A stretch of 64,000 bases of DNA from Bacteroidota bacterium (GTDB lineage Bacteria; Bacteroidota; Bacteroidia; Cytophagales; Spirosomataceae), in the NCBI GenBank assembly GCA_040387735.1, contig JAZKDE010000056.1, positions 4,395 through 68,394 of the forward strand, written 5' to 3'. The notes below the pieces were generated by a model. It searched no databases. It saw only the letters and a program-made list of their open reading frames with translations, and was not told where the DNA came from. Shown piece after piece: positions 9,198-52,320 of the stretch. A program made the translations under genes and the position numbers. Every line of letters begins with the position of its first letter. Positions within the stretch are counted from its first letter, which is position 1.

Positions 9198-9210
9198 GTT
9201 TTTTTATTTT

Positions 9211-9303
9211 TTAGGGATTAGAAGTTAGTAACTGGGGTAATTCTAAAATTAAGTAGATATGTAACGATTTTATAACCCCTAAAATCTAACTTTTAATCCC
9301 TAA
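9211..9303. repeat. Heptamer-phased inverted array / long hairpin between fur-family stop and hisA start
   Basis: TTAGGGA TTAGAAG TTAGTAA CTGGGGT ... AACCCCT AAAATCT AACTTTT AATCCCT. The outer 18-bp stem pairs 9211-9228 with 9286-9303 (one G-U). Confidence 0.75.
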
Positions 9304-9722
9304 ATAGCACAAGTTTTACAAACTCCTTGTACTAAAAGATTAGTTTCTACTCGCTGGTAGCCTTCTGGAAGAATAATACTTGGAATAATCACGTGGTCTA
9401 AACAAGTGGTCAGACCACAAGTTGTACATTTAAAATGTACATGGTCATGGTGATGCTGATGGTCACCTGAGTGACAATTATCTTTGCAAATGGCATATTT
9501 TACGCCACCCTCATCATCTAAAACTTTATGAATTAACCCTTTATCAACAAACGTTTTGAGCGTTCTGTAAACGGTTACTCGGTCGAATTGTTCGGTCAAT
9601 TGGGATTCTACATCCGCATGAGCAAGAGCATGAGATTTACTCATGAAAACCTCCAAGATTTCCTCTCTACAATCTGTTTGACGGAGTTTGTAGTCTTTGA
9701 GTATAGTTTTTACTTCGCTCAT
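9300..9722 (-). CDS. Fur family transcriptional regulator (Fur/Zur-type)
   Basis: 140 aa. Winged-helix N-terminus (R.T..R..IL), then a His-rich patch HSGDHQHHHDHVHFKC and paired CxxC motifs (CTTCG ... CKTC). Confidence 0.85.
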   Translation of the reverse strand: MSEVKTILKDYKLRQTDCREEILEVFMSKSHALAHADVESQLTEQFDRVTVYRTLKTFVDKGLIHKVLDDEGGVKYAICKDNCHSGDHQHHHDHVHFKCTTCGLTTCLDHVIIPSIILPEGYQRVETNLLVQGVCKTCAI

Positions 9723-9729
9723 ATTCTGT

Positions 9730-9792
9730 GGCTTTCGGTTTTTGGCTATCGGCGTTCGGCTTTCTCTTCAAAACGAAAAGCCGAACGCTGAA
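9730..9792. repeat. Heptamer-phased spacer upstream of fur-family gene
   Basis: GGCTTTC GGTTTTT GGCTATC GGCGTTC GGCTTTC TCTTCAA AACGAAA AGCCGAA CGCTGAA. Contains the 12-bp stem at 9752-9788. Confidence 0.7.
9752..9788 (-). terminator. Strong hairpin after the 9799-10239 membrane gene (no U-tract)
   Basis: A 12-bp stem gcgttcggcttt/aaagccgaacgc. Lacks a T-run on either strand, so terminator function is uncertain. Confidence 0.4.
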
Positions 9793-9798
9793 TGCTAT

Positions 9799-26914: not shown

Positions 26915-28219
26915 ATGTCTCCAACCACAAAAAAAACCGAAATACTTGCGGGTGTCAGCTCATTTTTAGCCACCATGTACATTATTGTCGTTAATCCAGC
27001 CATACTTTCTCAAACGGGAATGCCCTTTGCAGCAGTATTAACGGCAACGGTTTTGTTATCATTTTTCAGTAGTTTAATGATGGGTTTATACGCCCGAAAT
27101 CCCATTGTGGTAGCCCCCGGAATGGGCATGAACGCCTTTTTTACTTTTACTGCCGTGAAAGGAATGGGAATAAGTTATCAAGTGGCTTTAGGAGCCGTTT
27201 TTTGGGCGGGTATTTTCTTTTTAATTTTATCGATTTTCAACATTAGAACGTACATTGTCAAAGCCATTCCGAAGCCCTTGCGTTTTGCCATTTCAGCAGG
27301 TATTGGCTTATTTATCAGCTTAATAGGTTTTGAAAATGCCAAATTTATCGTGTCAAATCCTGCAACTTTAATCGGGATTGCTAATTTGAAAGACCCAATT
27401 GTGCTGACTTTTTTATTTGGTTTATTTCTAACTTCAATTTTAATAATTCGTAAAGTTCAAGGAGGAATAATTATTGGAATCATACTGACAACTTTACTCT
27501 CTATTCCGATTGGGCGATATTGGGGAGATGCGTCATTGATTAATTTTGGTCAAAAAACTTTGGTCAATTTTTATGAAGTTTTTGCCAAGCCAGATTTTAG
27601 TTTGATTGGACAATTAGACCTGATAGGTTCTTTGAAATTTTCTTTATTTCCCGTCATTTTTGCTTTTGTTTTTACTGACCTTTTTGATAGCCTTTCAACC
27701 TTCGTTGGACTTGCGGAAGCGGCCTATTTGTACGATGAAAACGGTGAACCCAGAAACGTAAAACAGTCGCTGTTGACGGATGCTGTGGCAACATTGCTGG
27801 CAGGAATTTTAGGGACAAGTCCAGGAACGGCATATATAGAATCTGCCGTCGGAATTGAACAAGGTGGACGACGTGGACTGACTGCTATTACAGCGGGCTT
27901 ACTGTTTTTACCCTTCATGTTTTTATCGCCTTTATTGTCAATTATTCCCGCCATTGCCACCGCTCCTGCTCTGGTAATTGTGGGCGTTTTTATGATAAAA
28001 CCGATTACCAAAATAAATTGGTCAAAATTGGACGATGCCATTCCTGCCTTTTTAGCCCTGATTTTGATACCATTTTCTTACTCAATAACACAAGGGATTA
28101 TTTGGGGATTTTTATCTTGGACAATCTTAAAAGTCTGTACGGGTAAATATAGAGAAGTGTCAATAACCCTGTGGATTATTGATTTATTTGCGGTTGGTGC
28201 TTTATTTTTTGGGCATTGA
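26915..28219 (+). CDS. NCS2 family permease (AzgA-type adenine/guanine/hypoxanthine permease)
   Basis: 434 aa. N-terminus (E..AG...F..M.YI..VNP.IL) and about 13 TM are typical of the AzgA subfamily. Confidence 0.85.
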   Translation: MSPTTKKTEILAGVSSFLATMYIIVVNPAILSQTGMPFAAVLTATVLLSFFSSLMMGLYARNPIVVAPGMGMNAFFTFTAVKGMGISYQVALGAVFWAGIFFLILSIFNIRTYIVKAIPKPLRFAISAGIGLFISLIGFENAKFIVSNPATLIGIANLKDPIVLTFLFGLFLTSILIIRKVQGGIIIGIILTTLLSIPIGRYWGDASLINFGQKTLVNFYEVFAKPDFSLIGQLDLIGSLKFSLFPVIFAFVFTDLFDSLSTFVGLAEAAYLYDENGEPRNVKQSLLTDAVATLLAGILGTSPGTAYIESAVGIEQGGRRGLTAITAGLLFLPFMFLSPLLSIIPAIATAPALVIVGVFMIKPITKINWSKLDDAIPAFLALILIPFSYSITQGIIWGFLSWTILKVCTGKYREVSITLWIIDLFAVGALFFGH

Positions 28220-28220
28220 T

Positions 28221-28284
28221 TTTTCGGTGTTTGTCATTCGATGTCCGACTTCCAAACATCGAATAACGAAAATCAAACATCCAA
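28221..28284. repeat. Heptamer-phased spacer between convergent permease and response-regulator genes
   Basis: TTCGGTG TTTGTCA TTCGATG TCCGACT TCCAAAC ATCGAAT AACGAAA ATCAAAC ATCCAAA. All five CG dinucleotides are spaced by multiples of 7. Confidence 0.6.
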
Positions 28285-43732: not shown

Positions 43733-45256
43733 TTACTTAAAATTATCACTCATAATTTTAGCCGAAGAAAGTGCCAACGGAATGCCTCCTCCTGGGTGAA
43801 CACTACCACCTACGAAATACATATTTTTGATTTTTGAAGAGAAATTAGCGTGTCTCAAAAATGCTGCAAAACGATTATTTGAGGAATTTCCGTACAAAGC
43901 TCCTTGTGCTGAGGAGGTTTTCGATTCAATTGTTCTTGGGTCGAGAATTTCCTCACATTCAATTAATGCTGCAATATTCTGACCTAAAACTCTACTGATT
44001 TTTTTCAATACATTTTCTTTCGTCTGACGAATAATTTCATCCCAATTTTGTCCTTCGTTGGCTGGAGCATTTATCAATACAAACCAATTTTCGCAACCTT
44101 TCGGAGCATCATCAACTTTGTATTTTGAGGTAATATTGATGTAAACTGTTGGGTCGTGATAAATGCTTTTCTTATCAAACATCGTCCTAAACTCCTCCTT
44201 ATAATTATCACTAAAAAGAATATTGTGCAAGTTCAATTCGGGAAATTGCTTCTTAATTCCCCAATAAAAGATAACCCCAGAACTCGATTTTGGCTGATTT
44301 AGCAAGAAATTAGGGTGTTTTTCATTTGGCAAAAGTTTACGATACGTATGCGTTACGTCCATATTGGAAACTACGTAGTCATAAGGTATTAGGTCGTAGG
44401 TGCGAGGTTGTTGATTTTGAAGAGTAAAACCAATTACCTCTTCTCTATTTTCTTTGTCTTCTTTTATCCTCAATCCTTTTACTTCTCTATTTTCAATAAT
44501 AACTTCCTCCACCTTCGTTTTAAAATAAAACTTCACGCCCAGGCTTTCGGCTAATTTTACAAGTGAGTCGGTAATAGAAACCATGCCTTTTTTTGGAAAA
44601 AAAGCTCCGATATTATACTCCAAATGCGGAATAATATTCAAAGTAGCAGGCGTTTGGTATGGATCAGAACCATTATAAGTAGCATAACGATTGAAAAGTT
44701 GGACAATTTTCGGGTTTTTGAATAACTTTTCATTAGCATCATTCATTGTTCCAAAAATACCTAATTTTGGAAGATTCAAATAACCTTTCAAGGCTTTTCG
44801 GGATGTCCAAGTGGATAATTTGTGTAGAGAATCTTGCAAAAAAAGTCCGTCTAAAACTTCATATTTAAAGGCACTTTCTTTCAAAAATTGCGTAATTTTT
44901 TCGGCAGGTTCGCCTGTAATTTTCTCAACTTCTTCGGCAAATTTTTGAGGTTCAGCCCAAGCAGTTAATCGAGTTTGGTCTTCCCAAAAATACCGACAAA
45001 CTTCGTTAAGTTGTTCATATTCAAAGTAATCAGTTGGATTTTCACCCACTAATTCAAATAATTCAGTTACTAAATTCGGAAGCGTAAACAAAGAAGGGCC
45101 AGCATCGAAACGATAGCCATTGAGGTCGAAACTACTTAATTTTCCTCCCGCATAAGCATTGGCTTCATAAACATAAACCTCTAATCCTTTGTGAGCCAAG
45201 CGAATAGCAGAGGCAATTCCTGCAATACCCGCTCCGATGATGGCAACTTTTTTCAT
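43733..45256 (-). CDS. Phytoene desaturase family protein (CrtI/CrtD-type FAD oxidoreductase)
   Basis: N-terminal dinucleotide fold MKKVAIIGAGIAGIASAIRLA.KG..V.V.E and a C-terminal GG.VHPGGG.P motif. Confidence 0.85.
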   Translation of the reverse strand: MKKVAIIGAGIAGIASAIRLAHKGLEVYVYEANAYAGGKLSSFDLNGYRFDAGPSLFTLPNLVTELFELVGENPTDYFEYEQLNEVCRYFWEDQTRLTAWAEPQKFAEEVEKITGEPAEKITQFLKESAFKYEVLDGLFLQDSLHKLSTWTSRKALKGYLNLPKLGIFGTMNDANEKLFKNPKIVQLFNRYATYNGSDPYQTPATLNIIPHLEYNIGAFFPKKGMVSITDSLVKLAESLGVKFYFKTKVEEVIIENREVKGLRIKEDKENREEVIGFTLQNQQPRTYDLIPYDYVVSNMDVTHTYRKLLPNEKHPNFLLNQPKSSSGVIFYWGIKKQFPELNLHNILFSDNYKEEFRTMFDKKSIYHDPTVYINITSKYKVDDAPKGCENWFVLINAPANEGQNWDEIIRQTKENVLKKISRVLGQNIAALIECEEILDPRTIESKTSSAQGALYGNSSNNRFAAFLRHANFSSKIKNMYFVGGSVHPGGGIPLALSSAKIMSDNFK

Positions 45257-45280
45257 AATTTATCCGTAAGTGTTATTACA

Positions 45281-45369
45281 CCGAGAGCCACAGAGTTTAA
45301 GACGAGAACCACAGAGTATTTCCAAGTATTTTCTGTGGTTCTCGTCTTAAATTCTGTGGCTCTCTGCGG
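45281..45369. repeat. CCACAGAG-type nested palindrome, copy A (no associated gene)
   Basis: A 34-bp stem pairs 45283-45316 with 45331-45364 (two G-U, no mismatch), with a 14-nt loop. Contains GAGAGCCACAGAG, TTTAAG and GAGAACCACAGAG, with the CCACAGA words 21 nt apart. Confidence 0.9.
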
Positions 45370-45413
45370 CAGGCCTACCTGTATAACTTATTTTTCCTGA
45401 AAATTGTTAAGAA

Positions 45414-46490
45414 TCAAAAGAACAGCCATTCCATCGCTTTTGGGAATTCTTTACCCCATTGTGCTTCGCTATGTCCTCCTTCTGGGTCAAGCGAAAGATT
45501 AATAACTGTCTTTTTAACACCTTGTCTTTCAAGCGTTTGCTTTAATTTTTCCACATTTGGAATCATTGCTGAGCTTTCTTTTCCGCCTGCATAAACATAA
45601 ATACGAGTGGGTAAATGCGAGAGAAAATCAATAGCATCAAAGTAAATATTAGGAGAAACCCAAAGTGATGGAGAGAAAATCATCAACCGACCAAAAGCCT
45701 CAGGAAACATCAAACCCGCATAAATACTAATCAATCCACCCAAAGAACTACCCCCAATTCCCGTTGCTTCACGGTCAGGAATGGTACGGAAATTTTTATC
45801 CACGTAAGGTTTCAACGTTTTTGCCAAAAATTGAGCGTATTTACGTCCCTGTCCTTTCCCTAATTTTGGATTATTATACGGCGAATATTCTTGATAACGG
45901 TCTTCTCCACCATGTGCAATGGCCACCACAATCACGTCGCCTTTTTCACGAGCCGACAACACTGCTAATTGTTTATCAACACCCCAATTACCAAATTCAG
46001 AGCCGCTACCAAAAAGATTTTGAGCATCTTGGAGATAAATAACGGGATAACGTTTGGTTGATTTTTCGTAGTTGTGAGGCAAAAGAATGGATACAGCCCG
46101 TTTCTTTCCCAATTGTGGCATCTCAAATTCATCCGAAATTAAACGTACTTCGGGCATAAGATTTTCGGAAAGATTTTCGCCGTCAAGTCGCCAATGAGGA
46201 ACAAAATCTTGGCATACACCATTTTTTATTTTAGCAACTCGATTACCCGTAGGATTGCCAAATTCATCTAATTCTACTTGATTCCAGCCACCTTTGGTAT
46301 ATTTATATTCAAAAGTATCAGGGATTTTTATGCTTTCGGGAAACTTCAAAACATATTTCCCATCTTCTACTTTATCAAGTTTTAGTTCTTCCTTATTAGG
46401 CAACCATGCGTTAAAATTTCCCGATAAATATACAGGGCGTTCATCTTCAACGGGTGTGGTCAATTCAAAATACAATATATTCTTACTCAT
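45414..46490 (-). CDS. Esterase-family alpha/beta hydrolase with N-terminal CBM48/E-set-like domain
   Basis: N-terminal about 100 aa with V.L.G.FN.W........G.... .YKY pattern, then a putative esterase fold with nucleophile elbow GGSSLGG. Confidence 0.7.
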   Translation of the reverse strand: MSKNILYFELTTPVEDERPVYLSGNFNAWLPNKEELKLDKVEDGKYVLKFPESIKIPDTFEYKYTKGGWNQVELDEFGNPTGNRVAKIKNGVCQDFVPHWRLDGENLSENLMPEVRLISDEFEMPQLGKKRAVSILLPHNYEKSTKRYPVIYLQDAQNLFGSGSEFGNWGVDKQLAVLSAREKGDVIVVAIAHGGEDRYQEYSPYNNPKLGKGQGRKYAQFLAKTLKPYVDKNFRTIPDREATGIGGSSLGGLISIYAGLMFPEAFGRLMIFSPSLWVSPNIYFDAIDFLSHLPTRIYVYAGGKESSAMIPNVEKLKQTLERQGVKKTVINLSLDPEGGHSEAQWGKEFPKAMEWLFF

Positions 46491-46816
46491 TAAGTTTCGT
46501 GGTTTTATCAATTCGTAAAATTACGGAATAATCTTATCGTATTATCCTGTTTTCATTAAAACTCGTTTTTTCAAATAAGGTTTTAAGATTAAAGTATCAT
46601 TTGGACTAAAATCGCTATTGTTTGGGCGTTTGGCGGTATGTAGAATTGAATATTTATTTGGAAATTTGTAAGGTAAAATACCTATAAATCTCAAAACTAT
46701 GCAATAATTGAAAATTTCCGTAGAGAAAAGTTTTGTTATTGATTGTTATGCTTCGGAAAAGCAAAACCTTCGTAGAAAATAATTAAAGAAGAAAAACAGA
46801 GAACAAATTTTTAAAT

Positions 46817-48217
46817 ATGAATAATCCAACAACCTTATTCGACAAAGTGTGGGACGCACACGTTGTTCGTAAAATCGAAGATGGTCCAGATGTATTTCTG
46901 ATTGACCGCCACTTTATCCACGAAGTAACCAGCCCAGTTGCATTTTTAGGCCTGGAAAGTCGTGGCATTGGTGTCCTTTATTCAGAGCGTACTTTCGCTA
47001 CTGCTGACCACAATACGCCAACTATTAACCAACATTTACCTGTTCAAGACCCACTTTCTGCTAATCAATTGCAACAATTGGAAACGAACTCGGCAAAATA
47101 TGGTATTTCGCACTGGGGATTGGGACACGCTAAAAATGGTATTGTTCACGTAGTTGGACCAGAAAATGGTATCACACTTCCAGGGATGACCATCGTTTGT
47201 GGTGACTCTCATACTTCTACGCACGGTGCTTTCGGAGCAATTGCATTTGGTATTGGTACTTCGGAGGTTGAAATGGTACTTTCTTCGCAGTGTATTATGC
47301 AACCGAAACCAAAGAAAATGCGTGTAAACGTAAATGGTAAATTGGGGAAAGCGGTTACACCAAAAGACGTTACTTTGTACATTATCGCTCAACTTTCGGC
47401 GGCAGGTGCTACGGGTTATTTCGTGGAATATGCGGGAGATGTGTTCGAGAATATGTCAATGGAAGGACGTATGACGGTTTGTAATATGTCAATCGAAATG
47501 GGTGCGAGAGGTGGAATGATTGCTCCAGATGAAACGACTTTCAATTACTTGAATGGCCGTGAGCAAGCTCCCAAAGGAGAAACTTGGGACAGAGCATTGG
47601 CTTACTGGAAAACCCTTAAAACGGACGATGGAGCTACTTTTGACCTTGAATATACTTACAATGCAGAAGATATTGAACCACAAATTACATACGGTACAAA
47701 CCCAGGTTTAGGAACGGGTATTTCTAAAAATATTCCTTTGGCAACTGACGTAATTGACGGTGAAGCAAGTTATAAAAAATCATTGGGTTACATGGGATTT
47801 GCCGAAAACGAATCAATCATCGGGAAACCAATTGATTATGTTTTCTTAGGTTCATGTACAAACGGTCGTATCGAAGATTTCCGTGCTTTCGCTTCAATTG
47901 TGAAGGGTCGCAAAAAAGCGGATAACGTAACGGCTTGGTTAGTTCCAGGTTCGCACGTGGTTGAAGCTCAGATTAAAGAAGAAGGTATTTTGGATATTTT
48001 GACAGAAGCAGGTTTCTTACTTCGTCAGCCAGGATGTTCGGCTTGTTTAGCGATGAACGACGATAAAATTCCTGCTGGAAAATATGCCGTTTCAACGTCA
48101 AACAGAAACTTTGAAGGTCGTCAAGGCCCAGGAGCAAGAACGCTTTTAGCTTCGCCATTAGTGGCAGCAGCAGCAGCGGTGACGGGAAAAGTTACAGACC
48201 CTCGGGAGTTTTTATAG
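46817..48217 (+). CDS. leuC: 3-isopropylmalate dehydratase large subunit
   Basis: 466 aa. Aconitase-family motifs ([37 protein letters not shown]). Confidence 0.96.
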
Positions 48218-48232
48218 GTGTATTTGAGGGGA

Positions 48233-48384
48233 TTTAGAGGGAAAGAGGTTACACAGAGAGCCACAGAGTTTTAAAATGAGAACCACAGAGAAAAAATCTC
48301 TACGTCTTTCTCATTTTCTCTAAAAATCTCTGTGGTTCTCAATTTTTTCTCTGTGGCTCTCTGTGTAACCTCATACCCTCTAAA
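48233..48384. repeat. CCACAGAG-type nested palindrome, copy B, directly upstream of the GxxExxY pseudogene
   Basis: Three stacked stems: 48233-48241/48376-48384, 48245-48268/48349-48372 (24 bp perfect) and 48278-48290/48328-48340 (13 bp perfect). Shares AGAGCCACAGAG ... GAGAACCACAGAG with copy A. Confidence 0.9.
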
Positions 48385-48410
48385 CAGGCTCAGATAAACA
48401 TAACAACAAA

Positions 48411-48782
48411 ATGGAAATAAACGAAATTACCAGAATAATCATTGGGTGTGGTATTGAAGTTCATAAACAGCTTGGTCCAGGTTTACTTGAATCAGCTTAT
48501 GAAGAATGTTTAGCTTTTGAATTGAAACAAAAAGGCTTACAAGTTTAAAGACAAAAAGCATTACCCATTCAATACAAAGACATCCAATTAGAATATGGTT
48601 ATCGAATAGATTTATTAGTTGAAAATACAGTGGTTATCGAATTGAAGAGTGTTGATATTTTACATCCATTACACGAAGCACAGATATTAATTTACATGAA
48701 ATTTGCTGAAAAGAAAATTGGGCTTTTAATGAATTTTAATGTACTTGCTTTGAAAGATGGCGTGAAGAGATTTATGAAATAA
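48411..48782 (+). pseudogene. GxxExxY protein (PD-(D/E)xK nuclease-like) gene with an in-frame TAA at codon 46
   Basis: Not in ORF track. My translation is [122 protein letters not shown]. The GLLESAY signature and D..(E.K) core are present. The stop at 48546-48548 falls where family members usually have Glu (GAA). Confidence 0.8.
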
Positions 48783-48831
48783 AAATTATATGGAATCTGA
48801 TTTCCATAAGAAAATAAAGCAAAATAAAATA

Positions 48832-49428
48832 ATGGCATACGATAAATTTACGGTACTTCGTTCGACAGCAGTGCCACTTCCAATAGAAAATGTCGATACT
48901 GACCAAATCATCCCTGCTCGTTTCTTGAAAGCTACGAAGCGTGAAGGTTTTGGCGATAATTTATTCAGAGATTGGCGTTATAACAACGACGAATCTCCAA
49001 AGCAAGATTTCGTCTTGAATAACCCAACTTACTCAGGTTCAATCCTTGTAGGTGGTCGTAACTTCGGTTCGGGTTCAAGCCGTGAACACGCCGCTTGGGC
49101 GATTTATGACTACGGTTTCCGTTGCGTAATTTCAAGCTTCTTTGCAGATATTTTTAAAGGTAATTCTTTGAATATCGGTATTTTACCAGTAACTGTTAGC
49201 CCAGAATTTTTAGATAAAATCTTCTTGGCAATTGAAGCTGACCCAAAAGCAGAAATTGAAGTAAATCTTCCAGAGCAAAAAGTTACCATTGTAGCATCGG
49301 GTGAAAGCGAAGGCTTTACCATCAACGGTTACAAAAAGAACAACATGCTCAACGGTTTTGATGATATTGACTATCTACAAAGCATGAAAGGTGAAATTGC
49401 AGCATTTGCAGAGAAGAGTCTTTATTAA
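48832..49428 (+). CDS. leuD: 3-isopropylmalate dehydratase small subunit
   Basis: MAYDKFTVL.S.AVPL..ENVDTDQIIPARFLK and GSSREHA. The ATG at 48832 matches the family N-terminus, and the ORF-track start at 48790 adds 14 aa. Confidence 0.95.
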   Translation: MAYDKFTVLRSTAVPLPIENVDTDQIIPARFLKATKREGFGDNLFRDWRYNNDESPKQDFVLNNPTYSGSILVGGRNFGSGSSREHAAWAIYDYGFRCVISSFFADIFKGNSLNIGILPVTVSPEFLDKIFLAIEADPKAEIEVNLPEQKVTIVASGESEGFTINGYKKNNMLNGFDDIDYLQSMKGEIAAFAEKSLY

Positions 49429-49431
49429 GAA

Positions 49432-49577
49432 GTTGCGAATTGTAAGTTGTGAGTTGTGAGTTAACGAGCAGTAAATTGTATTTGTGAATTATTAATTATG
49501 AGAAAACTCATGAAAACTCACAATTCACTACTCACAGTTCACAATTCACAACTCATCATTCGCTCATTCACAATTGA
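49432..49577. repeat. leuD-leuA spacer made of about 21 phased heptamers in inverted arrays
   Basis: Left half: GTTGCGA ATTGTAA GTTGTGA GTTGTGA GTTAACG AGCAGTA AATTGTA TTTGTGA ATTATTA ATTATGA. Right half: AACTCAC AATTCAC TACTCAC AGTTCAC AATTCAC AACTCAT CATTCGC TCATTCA CAATTGA. Confidence 0.85.
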
Positions 49578-49579
49578 AT

Positions 49580-51097
49580 ATGCGACACATAGAAATAATG
49601 GACACGACGCTTCGTGATGGTGAACAAACCAGCGGAGTGTCTTTCTCGGCTTCTGAAAAGCTAACGATTGCTCAGTTACTTTTGAAAGAAGTAATGGTGG
49701 ATAGATTAGAAGTCGCTTCGGCAAGAGTATCGGCGGGTGAATTTGATGCGGTTAAGAAAATTACCGAGTGGGCGGCTGAGAATGGTTGTTTGGATAAAAT
49801 TGAAGTTTTAACCTTCGTTGACGGTGACACTTCGGTCAATTGGATGTTAGAAGCGGGTGCAAAAGTGATGAACCTTCTCACAAAAGGCTCATTAAATCAC
49901 CTCACGCACCAACTCAAAAAAACACCCGAACAGCACTTTTCTGAAATCGCTCAGGTGATTGCTTTGGCTCGTTCTAAAGGAATTTTGTGTAATGTTTATT
50001 TAGAAGATTGGAGTAATGGAATGCGTAATTCTCCCGAATATGTTTTTCAATACCTTGATTTTTTGACGAAAGAACCCATCGAAAGAGTGCTTTTGCCCGA
50101 TACTTTGGGAGTATTGACACCAAGAGAAACCTTTGATTTCTTGGATGCTATCGTAAAACGTTACCCAAATACGCACTTCGATTTTCATGCTCATAACGAT
50201 TACGATTTAAGCATTGCCAATGTCATGGAAGCCATTCGTGCGGGCGTACAAGGCTTGCACTTAACCGTGAATGGCATGGGAGAGCGTGCAGGAAATGCTT
50301 CTTTGGCAAGTACCATTGCGGTAATCAACGATTTTATGCCCGAAGTGAAGACGATGGTAGTTGAAAAATCTTTGTATTCGGTAAGTAAATTGGTAGAGAC
50401 TTTTTCGGGTTTCAGAATTCCAGTGAATAAGCCAGTTGTAGGTGAAAATGTTTTTACGCAAACGGCTGGTATTCATGCGGATGGCGACAATAAAAAGAAT
50501 CTTTATTTCAACAATTTAATGCCCGAACGTTTTGGTCGATTGCGTCAATACGCTTTAGGAAAAACCTCTGGAAAGGCAAATATTGAGAAAAATTTGCAAG
50601 AATTAGGGATCACTTTAGCCGATGCCGATTTGAAAAAAGTAACGCAAAGAATTATCGAATTGGGTGACAGAAAAGAAGCCGTAACTCGTGAAGATTTGCC
50701 GTATATTATTTCGGACGTATTGGATAGCAGTGCCATTGAAGAAAAAGTTATCGTATTGAATTACGTTTTGACACATTCTAAAAACCTAAAGCCTTCTGCC
50801 ACTTTACAAGTAAAAATTGGCGAAGAAATTTTTGAAGAATCTGCTCAAGGAGACGGACAATATGATGCCTTCATGAACGCCTTGAAGAAAATATATTGTC
50901 AAAAGAATATCGAACTTCCACAACTGACGGATTATGCCGTAAGGATTCCACCAGGAGGAAAAACCGATGCCCTTTGTGAGACGATTATTACGTGGGCTTA
51001 TAATGGTAGAAGTTTAAAAACTCGTGGACTCGACTCTGACCAAACAGTTTCGGCTATCATTGCGACACAGAAAATGCTGAATATAATTAGCGTTTAA
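49580..51097 (+). CDS. 2-isopropylmalate synthase / (R)-citramalate synthase family enzyme
   Basis: IMDTTLRDGEQT.GVSFS, the HAHND metal site and a C-terminal LeuA-dimer regulatory domain. The N-terminal block (LL.E..VDR.EVASARVS.GE) looks to me more like the CimA/LeuA2 subgroup, so the substrate is ambiguous. Confidence 0.85.
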   Translation: MRHIEIMDTTLRDGEQTSGVSFSASEKLTIAQLLLKEVMVDRLEVASARVSAGEFDAVKKITEWAAENGCLDKIEVLTFVDGDTSVNWMLEAGAKVMNLLTKGSLNHLTHQLKKTPEQHFSEIAQVIALARSKGILCNVYLEDWSNGMRNSPEYVFQYLDFLTKEPIERVLLPDTLGVLTPRETFDFLDAIVKRYPNTHFDFHAHNDYDLSIANVMEAIRAGVQGLHLTVNGMGERAGNASLASTIAVINDFMPEVKTMVVEKSLYSVSKLVETFSGFRIPVNKPVVGENVFTQTAGIHADGDNKKNLYFNNLMPERFGRLRQYALGKTSGKANIEKNLQELGITLADADLKKVTQRIIELGDRKEAVTREDLPYIISDVLDSSAIEEKVIVLNYVLTHSKNLKPSATLQVKIGEEIFEESAQGDGQYDAFMNALKKIYCQKNIELPQLTDYAVRIPPGGKTDALCETIITWAYNGRSLKTRGLDSDQTVSAIIATQKMLNIISV

Positions 51098-51249
51098 AAA
51101 ATCAAGTAGAAGGAATTCTAATGTGATTTTGGAGTGAAGGTTCAAAGGATTTTTGCCAATAAAATACCAAAAGCTACCTTTTTTCTTTGTGCCTTGGTGG
51201 CAAAACATTCACTAATAAACTTAGAGCCTTTGTGGCTAAATACAATAAA

Positions 51250-52320
51250 ATGAAAAAACATATCTTAGTAGTCCCAGGTGACGGAATTGGGCAAGAAGTA
51301 ACAACCGTTGGTAAAAAAGTTTTAGAGAAAATCGCTGAGAAATTCGGACATGAATTTACGTATGACGAAGCTCTTATCGGTCACGTAGCTATTGAAGCAA
51401 CAGGAGTTCCACTTCCTGAGGAAACTTTAGTTAAAATGCGTGCTTCTGACGCAATCCTTTTCGGAGCAGTTGGTCACGCCAAATACGACAACGACCCACA
51501 CGCTAAAGTGCGTCCAGAGCAAGGTTTATTGAAAATGCGTAAAGAATTAGGTTTGTACGCAAACCTTCGTCCAATCAAATTATTTGATGAATTGTTAGAA
51601 GCATCTTCTATTAAGCCAGAAATTTTGAAAGGAGCAGATATTCTTTTCTTTCGTGAATTAACGGGTGACGTTTACTTCGGCAAAAGAGAAAGAATCGACG
51701 AAGGAAATACTGCTTATGACACGATGATTTATAGCAAATATGAAGTTGAGCGTATTGCACGCAAGGCTTTCGATGCAGCCATGACTCGTGGTAAAAAATT
51801 GATGTCAGTTGACAAAGCTAACGTATTGGAATCGAGCCGTTTGTGGAGAGAAACTGTACAAGAAATTGCTCCAGAATATCCAGAAGTAGAGGTGACGCAC
51901 CAATTTGTGGATTCTTGTGCGATGATGTTAATTAAAGACCCAAAACAATTTGACGTAGTCGTTACAGGTAATTTATTTGGAGATATTTTGACGGATGAAG
52001 CTTCTCAAATTGCAGGTTCGATGGGAATGTTAGCATCGGCTTCAATCGGTGATAGCACAGGTGTTTATGAACCAATTCACGGTTCTGGGCACGATATTGC
52101 GGGTAAAGGCATTGCAAATCCAATGGCTTCTGTTTTATCGGTTGCTTTATTATTAGATATTTCATTTGGTTTAAAGGCAGAAGCAGAAGCAGTGATTGCG
52201 GCGATTGACTCAGTCTTGAAAGCAGGTTTCCGTACTGGAGATATTGCCACAAAAGATACGCCAAAAAATATGATTTTGGGAACTGATGCAATCGGAGAAG
52301 AGATTCTAAATAGATTATAA
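51250..52320 (+). CDS. leuB: 3-isopropylmalate dehydrogenase
   Basis: MKKHILVVPGDGIGQEV, NLFGDILTDE and GS.GM..SAS. The ATG at 51250 is preferred over the ORF-track start at 51187. Confidence 0.96.
   Translation: MKKHILVVPGDGIGQEVTTVGKKVLEKIAEKFGHEFTYDEALIGHVAIEATGVPLPEETLVKMRASDAILFGAVGHAKYDNDPHAKVRPEQGLLKMRKELGLYANLRPIKLFDELLEASSIKPEILKGADILFFRELTGDVYFGKRERIDEGNTAYDTMIYSKYEVERIARKAFDAAMTRGKKLMSVDKANVLESSRLWRETVQEIAPEYPEVEVTHQFVDSCAMMLIKDPKQFDVVVTGNLFGDILTDEASQIAGSMGMLASASIGDSTGVYEPIHGSGHDIAGKGIANPMASVLSVALLLDISFGLKAEAEAVIAAIDSVLKAGFRTGDIATKDTPKNMILGTDAIGEEILNRL

Follow-up and report, generated by a model that had tools for sequence, protein, structure and literature searches.

The 152-nt palindrome that follows leuC in the 64-kb window (the whole stretch of DNA analysed, 64,000 nt) is probably the arm pair of an IVS-like selfish mini-cassette located outside rRNA. 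Its structure, the repeat family to which it belongs, the link to a small gene, presence or absence at the leuC-leuD junction, co-orientation with the operon and conservation of the component words are established by direct observation. The sequence-only reading from which this work started had proposed that the palindrome and a GxxExxY gene form one cassette, an idea that is supported once the two copies of the palindrome, here copy A and copy B, are assigned to their correct neighbours. The relevant features of the window are:

45281–45369 (no strand): the gene-less copy B of this repeat family, a hairpin of two words in the spacer that separates an esterase-like gene from crtD
46817–48217 (+): leuC, upstream flank of the cassette (TIGR00170, 624 bits)
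48222–48395 (no strand): copy A, full nested hairpin including a weakly paired outer tier ATTTGAGGGG.. / ..CCCTCTAAAC (fold z = -13.9, inverted repeat, family alignment)
48245–48290 (+): left ('>') arm of copy A, GAGGTTACACAGAGAGCCACAGAG, A/T spacer, GAGAACCACAGAG (from the words; 37/37 word positions as in the L057 and L070 orthologues)
48291–48327 (+): apical loop of copy A, pyrimidine-rich (common to L057, L070, L159 and a gene-less copy in L020)
48328–48372 (+): right ('<') arm of copy A, CTCTGTGGTTCTC, spacer, CTCTGTGGCTCTCTGTGTAACCTC (from the words; conserved in orthologues)
48411–48785 (+): GxxExxY / PDDEXK_3 gene, a pseudogene by one nonsense codon (profile matches, orthologues)
48832–49428 (+): leuD, downstream flank of the cassette, start MAYDKF (true start 48832)
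49429–49573 (no strand): leuD-synthase spacer, imperfect palindrome of GTTGTGAGTT / AACTCACAA with TCATTC words
49574–51097: citramalate/isopropylmalate-synthase family gene, after leuD
51098–51249 (no strand): synthase-leuB spacer, right-arm remnants CTTTGTGCCTTGGTGGC and GAGCCTTTGTGGCTAA
51250–52320: leuB, after the synthase gene

Copy A starts 16 nt past the leuC stop codon (stop at 48217), exactly where it had been placed, and 48233–48384 forms a nested palindrome that, with copy B, lies far above chance expectation. Folding of 48218–48411 gives coaxial nested stems of 9 bp, 24 bp and 3+15 bp closed by a pyrimidine-rich 35-nt loop, so that the stems of 9, 24 and 13 bp and the 37-nt loop described earlier were essentially right. 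The folding energy is -97.7 kcal/mol, against -39.3 ± 4.2 kcal/mol for dinucleotide-preserving shuffles (z = -13.9; equalled by 0/200 shuffles). Words in the left arm are of CACAGAG type and those in the right arm of CTCTGTG type, and the element aligns with 23 further members of the repeat family. Promoter or terminator signals above chance were not detected at the hairpins; an intrinsic terminator was considered and rejected, with three terminator-like sites in 45100–51400 (5.6 expected) and none at the main stems. Rfam identified no family at gathering thresholds, and no rRNA, in the window, the sub-threshold matches being generic plant miRNA-hairpin models alone (≤42.6 bits, threshold 85).

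The arms of copy B (45283–45364) are 33 nt each and 97% complementary, with a folding energy of -75 kcal/mol (z = -12.1). As the sequence-only reading had it, this is a shorter copy with matching words in matching order, GAGAGCCACAGAG then GAGAACCACAGAG in both copies, and all six occurrences of the octamer CCACAGAG in the 64-kb window lie within copies A and B (0.53 expected; 0/100 shuffles). The GxxExxY gene said to lie directly downstream of copy B is not there: the two copies had been swapped, and the gene adjoins copy A. The neighbours of copy B, the esterase-like gene and crtD, are both minus-strand genes. CrtD shares 100% identity with a protein from an 80-kb JGI metagenome contig and 86% with an Arcicella aurantiaca protein, which identifies the host as an uncultured, Arcicella-like bacterium of the order Cytophagales; a look-up of the exact LeuC sequence gave no match. 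In the relatives L155–L157 (~1830–1930) the esterase-crtD junction is occupied by a ~90-nt palindrome of AGAATGCAGAA / GAATGTAGAAG, replacing copy B, and the stretch from that palindrome to crtD has no counterpart in the window.

The GxxExxY gene begins 27 nt past copy A and matches both TIGR04256 (E = 1e-43; 148 bits, cut-off 35) and PF13366 PDDEXK_3 (E = 1e-43). It carries an in-frame TAA at codon 46 (48546–48548), where orthologues read GAA; those of L057 and L070 are uninterrupted (93.5–94.4% amino-acid identity), and in relatives the gene is, judging from its sequence, under purifying selection. Residues E27, Y30, E31, D67, E77 and K79 are invariant across 28 homologues, with the D...E-x-K core conserved, and the family is large (at least 8000 matches at E < 1e-10). 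Sequence searching identified no PDB homologue; the AlphaFold model is of moderate quality (pLDDT 72.9) and its comparison with the PDB by Foldseek returned nothing below E = 1, so that the predicted structure added nothing to the Pfam assignment. PADLOC reported weak similarity to Cas4 alone (E = 1e-4).

The content of the leuC-leuD junction was examined in a LeuD-anchored metagenome scan of 80 loci picked without regard to the motif, 73 of which also hold leuC; these loci are mutually related, and counts taken from them are not independent events. The spacer between the two genes ranges from 5 to 666 nt. It is under 95 nt in 43/73 loci, without an insert of comparable size, and 95–206 nt in 18/73, several of these being gene-less arrays of short words. 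The remaining 12/73 have spacers of at least 429 nt, containing a GxxExxY gene (two loci), a four-helix-bundle gene of PF05635, the 23S rRNA IVS protein family (eight loci), a retropepsin-like gene (one locus) or no ORF (one locus). The retropepsin-like ORF (142 aa; PF13650 / PF13975), in the 584-nt gap of L106, represents a third cargo family. Lineages other than that of the window have a four-helix-bundle gene with arms of other words, gene-less arms, or nothing (8–70 nt) at this position. Insertion after leuC had been proposed, and junction content does vary among relatives, empty sites included. No target-site duplication was seen on comparing filled with short junctions, whose flanks are strongly diverged.

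Relatives with a GxxExxY gene show two arrangements of arms and gene. L057 and L070 have the orthologous leuC-hairpin-GxxExxY-leuD order, with the gene intact, and in L159 (82% identical) the hairpin also lies upstream of the gene, as in the window. In L113 and L115, the gene is found inside the loop, with the CACAGAG arm upstream and the CTCTGTG arm downstream. In L161 and L163 (79% and 76% identical, respectively), the left arm reaches to 0–2 nt from the ATG, and no more than 3 nt separate the stop codon from the right arm, the whole lying between leuC and leuD. L165 and L167 (72%) carry the minimal arm-gene-arm unit at an unrelated locus, after purE. The bracketing arms of L113, L115, L161, L163 and L165 fold together with energies of -47 to -67 kcal/mol (z between -9 and -11). 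Since the gene is bracketed in the 76–79% homologues and preceded by a hairpin in L057, L070 and L159, the layout at copy A is derived: the gene-between-arms order is ancestral, the arms-together-upstream order having arisen within the clade at ≥82% identity.

Association of arms with small genes was also evident in numbers. The LeuD-anchored set (337 kb) contains 26 arms with at least two CAC[N][GA]AG words, 17 of which (65%) flank a GxxExxY or four-helix-bundle gene, and all five GxxExxY genes of the set have a CACNGAG arm ≤130 nt upstream; only 1.65% of bases in the set are within 100 nt of an arm. The element-gene association suggested from the sequence alone is thus real. Complementary flanks at z > 4.5 were found for 17/32 small genes and for 4/74 leuD controls. 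Every one of the 21 small genes found in the LeuD-anchored loci reads in the direction of the operon, and the same holds for those in L159–L167.

Similar sequences occupy the other two junctions of the leu operon. Between leuD and the synthase gene, a CACAGAG hairpin is found in L070 and L057, and L163 is nearly empty (about 20 nt); in L159 and L161 this junction contains GAATGATA / TATCATTC words. Between the synthase gene and leuB, L070 carries a second GxxExxY cassette, intact and 45% identical to the first. A GxxExxY gene is found at this position in L070, L079, L081 and L115 and a four-helix-bundle gene in L076, L080, L086, L095 and L119, each bracketed by inverted arms with CACAAAG, CACGGAG or GGCACAAAG words, making this junction a second hot spot. 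With copy A, the leuD-synthase palindrome and the synthase-leuB remnants, all three leu intercistronic spacers of the window contain cassette-type sequence.

The wider repeat family was collected by searching one genome per species for exact matches to GAGCCACAGAG-N4-14-GAACCACAGAG, which identified 74 further loci, mostly in Bacteroidota, so that the motif pair is far from confined to the two sites seen in the window. They include several Arcicella MAGs (4–8 loci each), one Cytophagales MAG, and members of the Bacteroidales, Chitinophagaceae and Sphingobacteriales. The Arcicella-type layout has a weak outer tier, TTTTGAGGGNATGAGG / CCTCATNCCCTCAAAA, around the outer words, followed by an A/T spacer, the inner words and the loop. 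In Bacteroidales the arm reads TTACACAGAG..CCACAGAG..CACAGAG..CCACAGAG, with the words phased at 10–11 nt, and usually stands after its complement, not before it; this reversed order indicates that the conserved unit is the oriented arm of words and not one hairpin topology. Only ~6/78 exact-motif copies have a GxxExxY gene no more than 150 nt away, gene-less copies dominating in Arcicella. Both the motif and the GxxExxY gene are absent from viral contigs, and carriage by phage was not found. Literature searching gave no account of the words, of comparable cassettes located outside rRNA, or of how such an element spreads.

Matches in Desulfobacterales, Planctomycetia, Myxococcales and Lachnospiraceae were not counted as family members, being mostly simple tandem octamer arrays; outside Bacteroidota, such arrays mostly have no recognisable small gene alongside. 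The exception is a Prosthecobacter MAG (L038, 6719–7326), in which a four-helix-bundle gene is preceded by 17 octamer words (AGCCACAG / AGCCACGG) and followed by (CCTCTGAC)n, the two arrays not being complementary (z = -0.5). Tandem arrangements were also seen in L011 (1909–3071), where a 336-nt unit with CACAGAG and CTCTGTG arms is repeated 3.5 times (92% matches) and adjoins a GxxExxY gene, and in a Chitinophaga MAG (L003, 1019–1245), where gene-less units of ~78 nt each consist of a CTCTGTG arm then a CACAGAG arm. At 28219–28273 of the window, a small hairpin of unrelated sequence (CATTCGATGT..ACATCGAATAAC) takes exactly the position of a CACAGAG hairpin in an Arcicella MAG (L036, 6856–6977). 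A RAYT-like Y1 transposase gene (PF01797; L076 1–400, L157 32–493), followed by its own GTAG/CTAC REP-like repeats, is a separate system present in the same genomes.

The words of the hairpin are far better conserved than their surroundings. Between the window and the orthologous hairpins of L057 and L070, 72/74 and 73/74 word positions are identical (97–99%), while only 43–59% of four-fold degenerate sites in leuC and leuD are identical in the same comparisons, and spacers between words match at 3/8 to 7/8 positions, with indels. Because words have been kept while four-fold sites and spacers diverged, the perfect stems reflect maintenance and not recent copying; of the earlier proposal of 'recent spread or active maintenance', the second half is favoured over the first. 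Identical words also recur in different bacterial orders, beside GxxExxY genes only 63–74% identical to that of the window, which argues for a sequence-specific constraint. Word pairs are invariant across 24 family members and, as they do not covary, constraint on structure and constraint on sequence are inseparable within the words. In the outer tier, 15 pairs are changed on both sides (36 cells; 24 members), with the double changes or the covariation score matched by 1/500 shuffles.

An 11-mer of the right arm had also been noted at 9723–9733, next to a start codon. It is present, as part of a different hairpin of GGCTTTCGG / AAAGCCGAACG words that is not a copy of the element. A 140-aa ORF (9300–9722, minus strand) lies here between two other palindromes (9723–9795 and 9210–9304): one of GGCTTTCGG / CGTTCGGCTTTC...GAAAAGCCGAACG words abuts its start codon, and an inverted repeat, TTTAGGGATTAGAAGTTAG / CTAACTTTTAATCCCTAAA, is found past its stop codon. 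GGCTTTCGG-type words also bracket four-helix-bundle genes in L083 and L091. The earlier statement that translated arms appear as N-terminal peptides of GxxExxY proteins is borne out by database proteins, those with long N-termini opening VALCVTS..., ...KLCGSLCN..., MYLLHREPQS... or ...YTEKHGVHTENHRG...; start codons miscalled into the arms account for these peptides.

In relatives the basic unit consists of a left arm made of CACAGAG-type words in phase, then a GxxExxY gene (PD-(D/E)XK) of ~123 codons and a right arm with the complementary CTCTGTG words, and it occupies the spacer between two housekeeping genes, oriented with their transcription. In the lineage of the window the two arms are found side by side upstream of the gene, giving the stand-alone hairpin of copy A (read as a rearranged arm pair), and the gene has gained its stop codon recently. 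Copy B would be a gene-less derivative, in the manner of an IVS that lacks its ORF, or of a MITE. The cassette, which has no recognisable promoter, is likely transcribed along with the host operon. Paired in the RNA, the arms could form an extended duplex and a substrate for RNase III, as in the ORF-bearing 23S rRNA IVS of Coxiella; cleavage would uncouple the insert from the adjacent cistrons and so make insertion tolerable. The RNase III step taken alone is less probable than the cassette assignment itself, and in copy A, with the gene outside the hairpin, the logic of bracketing does not apply directly.

Constraint on the words beyond their pairing implies a sequence-specific partner. Spread would most likely occur by recombination through the conserved flanking genes following DNA transfer, with the encoded nuclease as a possible aid; four-helix-bundle cassettes have the same layout and no nuclease, which makes a general role of the cargo as the mobility enzyme unlikely. 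The gene-less Arcicella copies with a conserved outer tier could represent spreading of the hairpin alone. At three orthologous sites (28219–28273 compared with L036, the leuD-synthase junction, and the esterase-crtD junction in L155–L157) the alternative allele is another palindrome and not an empty site, which fits either insertion into existing hairpins or a need of the host for a hairpin there.

Two readings that separate the palindrome from the gene appear unlikely. One holds that it is an independent REP/REPIN- or MITE-like element, moved by a transposase acting in trans, and that proximity to GxxExxY genes reflects accumulation of both in intergenic regions. In keeping with such an element, each Arcicella MAG has several to many copies that lack a gene and share their outer tier across unrelated loci, only a small fraction of exact-motif copies (~6/78) adjoin a GxxExxY gene, and a Y1 transposase (PF01797) gene is present in Arcicella relatives. 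However, the REP-like repeats that follow the Y1 transposase gene of L076 (GCCTCGGAGAT.CACAACCT.T.TAG and an inverted copy) are its own and unrelated to CACAGAG, which does not support the REP-like affinity suggested by the sequence-only reading, and 0/74 motif loci encode a Y1 transposase. Invariant words, divergent spacers and loops and old orthologous copies are the opposite of a recent burst, 65% of LeuD-anchored arms lie by a small gene, with arms exactly at start and stop codons, and neither a target-site duplication nor an insertion-sequence terminal inverted repeat was found at the junctions compared, where flanks are strongly diverged. The other reading, which we rate no higher, is of an intergenic hairpin that serves the host, whether in RNA processing or RNA stability or as an unconventional terminator or insulator, with turnover of word families and small genes hitch-hiking. 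This would suit the different palindromes that relatives have, in place of empty sites, at 28.2 kb and at the leuD-synthase and esterase-crtD junctions, the filling of entire spacers between co-directional genes, and the distribution of classifiable elements (47 tandem, 22 convergent, 13 divergent). Against it, the leuC-leuD spacer is <95 nt in 43/73 relatives, and 5–14 nt in some, so no hairpin is needed there; the stems have no T-run past them and no terminator call above chance, a strong stem that stopped transcription within leuCD would be harmful, and structure alone leaves the conservation of words across bacterial orders unexplained.

Two further possibilities are much more remote. Uptake-signal-like words (as DUS/USS) in inverted pairs, kept through recognition by a DNA-uptake receptor, would explain why words are conserved and spacers are not, and why inverted pairs follow genes, but their density is far too low (the 64 kb contain six such words, confined to two elements) and they are tied to particular cassettes and not spread genome-wide, making this very improbable. 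Hardly credible, too, is an attC-like recombination site of an integron-type gene cassette, as had also been suggested: although an imperfect palindrome lies by a small promoter-less gene, and cargo varies at one site, the ends (GTTACAC / GTGTAAC) do not match the attC core sites (GTTRRRY / RYYYAAC), no cassette array or integrase was found beside any locus examined, and the cassettes are single and within housekeeping operons.

Beyond the preferred reading of copy A as the arm pair of an IVS-like cassette, a broader proposal can be made only tentatively: that arms plus a small gene (GxxExxY, four-helix-bundle, perhaps others) constitute widespread, undescribed mini mobile cassettes in the spacers of conserved co-transcribed genes, with the words as sites for a dedicated factor and the PD-(D/E)XK cargo maybe acting as a structure- or sequence-specific nuclease. 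Spread through flank recombination or an RNA intermediate would explain the strict co-orientation. If so, classical 23S rRNA IVSs would be a special case of such cassettes, the one noticed first. GxxExxY and four-helix-bundle proteins form very large families of unknown function, with N-termini often mis-annotated from arms. A role as the cargo of bracketed cassettes would account for these annotation artefacts and link both kinds of gene to the long-unexplained ORF-bearing rRNA IVSs. The leucine operon of cultivable Arcicella, Runella and Dyadobacter would offer a tractable system for insertion, RNA processing and the reader of the words.

Several known systems share some of these properties. 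Like REP/REPIN sequences, the elements are multi-copy intergenic palindromes, often close to gene ends, but the family alignment has no conserved GTAG head, the hairpin is a 90–170-nt nest of phased words, the associated genes do not encode HUH enzymes and the RAYT-like gene of relatives has other REPs. In MITEs with autonomous parents and in the nested small dispersed repeats of cyanobacteria, gene-less copies resemble joined unit ends and have nested tiers. The gene-less copies described here likewise look like joined ends of the gene-bearing unit, with nested tiers, but no transposase was found, no target-site duplication could be made out on the diverged flanks, and copies are old with selectively conserved words. 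Integron cassettes with attC also combine a small promoter-less gene with an imperfect palindrome and swappable cargo at one site, whereas no integrase, arrays or attC core sites were found at the loci examined. T-odd and T-even phages have free-standing homing endonuclease genes between conserved genes, and intercistronic RNase III hairpins. A small nuclease-family gene between conserved genes and long intercistronic hairpins are found here too, but the nuclease role is a predicted one, and motif and gene are absent from viral contigs.

Of the systems described so far, the nearest is the ORF-bearing 23S rRNA IVS of Leptospira and Coxiella (S23p / 23S_rRNA_IVP). The Coxiella IVS is 428 nt, with inverted repeats forming a stem and excision by RNase III; its ORF, for a four-helix-bundle protein (S23p), follows tandem GACAGAT heptamers that vary in number between strains. 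This ORF is in decay, and it has been suggested that the IVS was once mobile (PMC4990558). The cassettes described here differ in lying between protein-coding genes and not in 23S rRNA helix 25 or 45, and in the window ORF belonging to PF13366 / TIGR04256 and not PF05635, with its arms adjacent and upstream; the cut was demonstrated in Coxiella, and the duplexes of 24 bp and 15 bp in copy A are predicted. In common with the 23S rRNA IVSs, they are inserts of 400–700 nt in a conserved, highly transcribed unit, with a stem around an ORF of ~120 codons (an inverted-repeat stem enclosing the ORF is found in L113, L115, L161, L163 and L165), short tandem words before the ORF, decay of the ORF in some strains and ORF-less versions, and sister cassettes at the leu junctions encode PF05635 itself.
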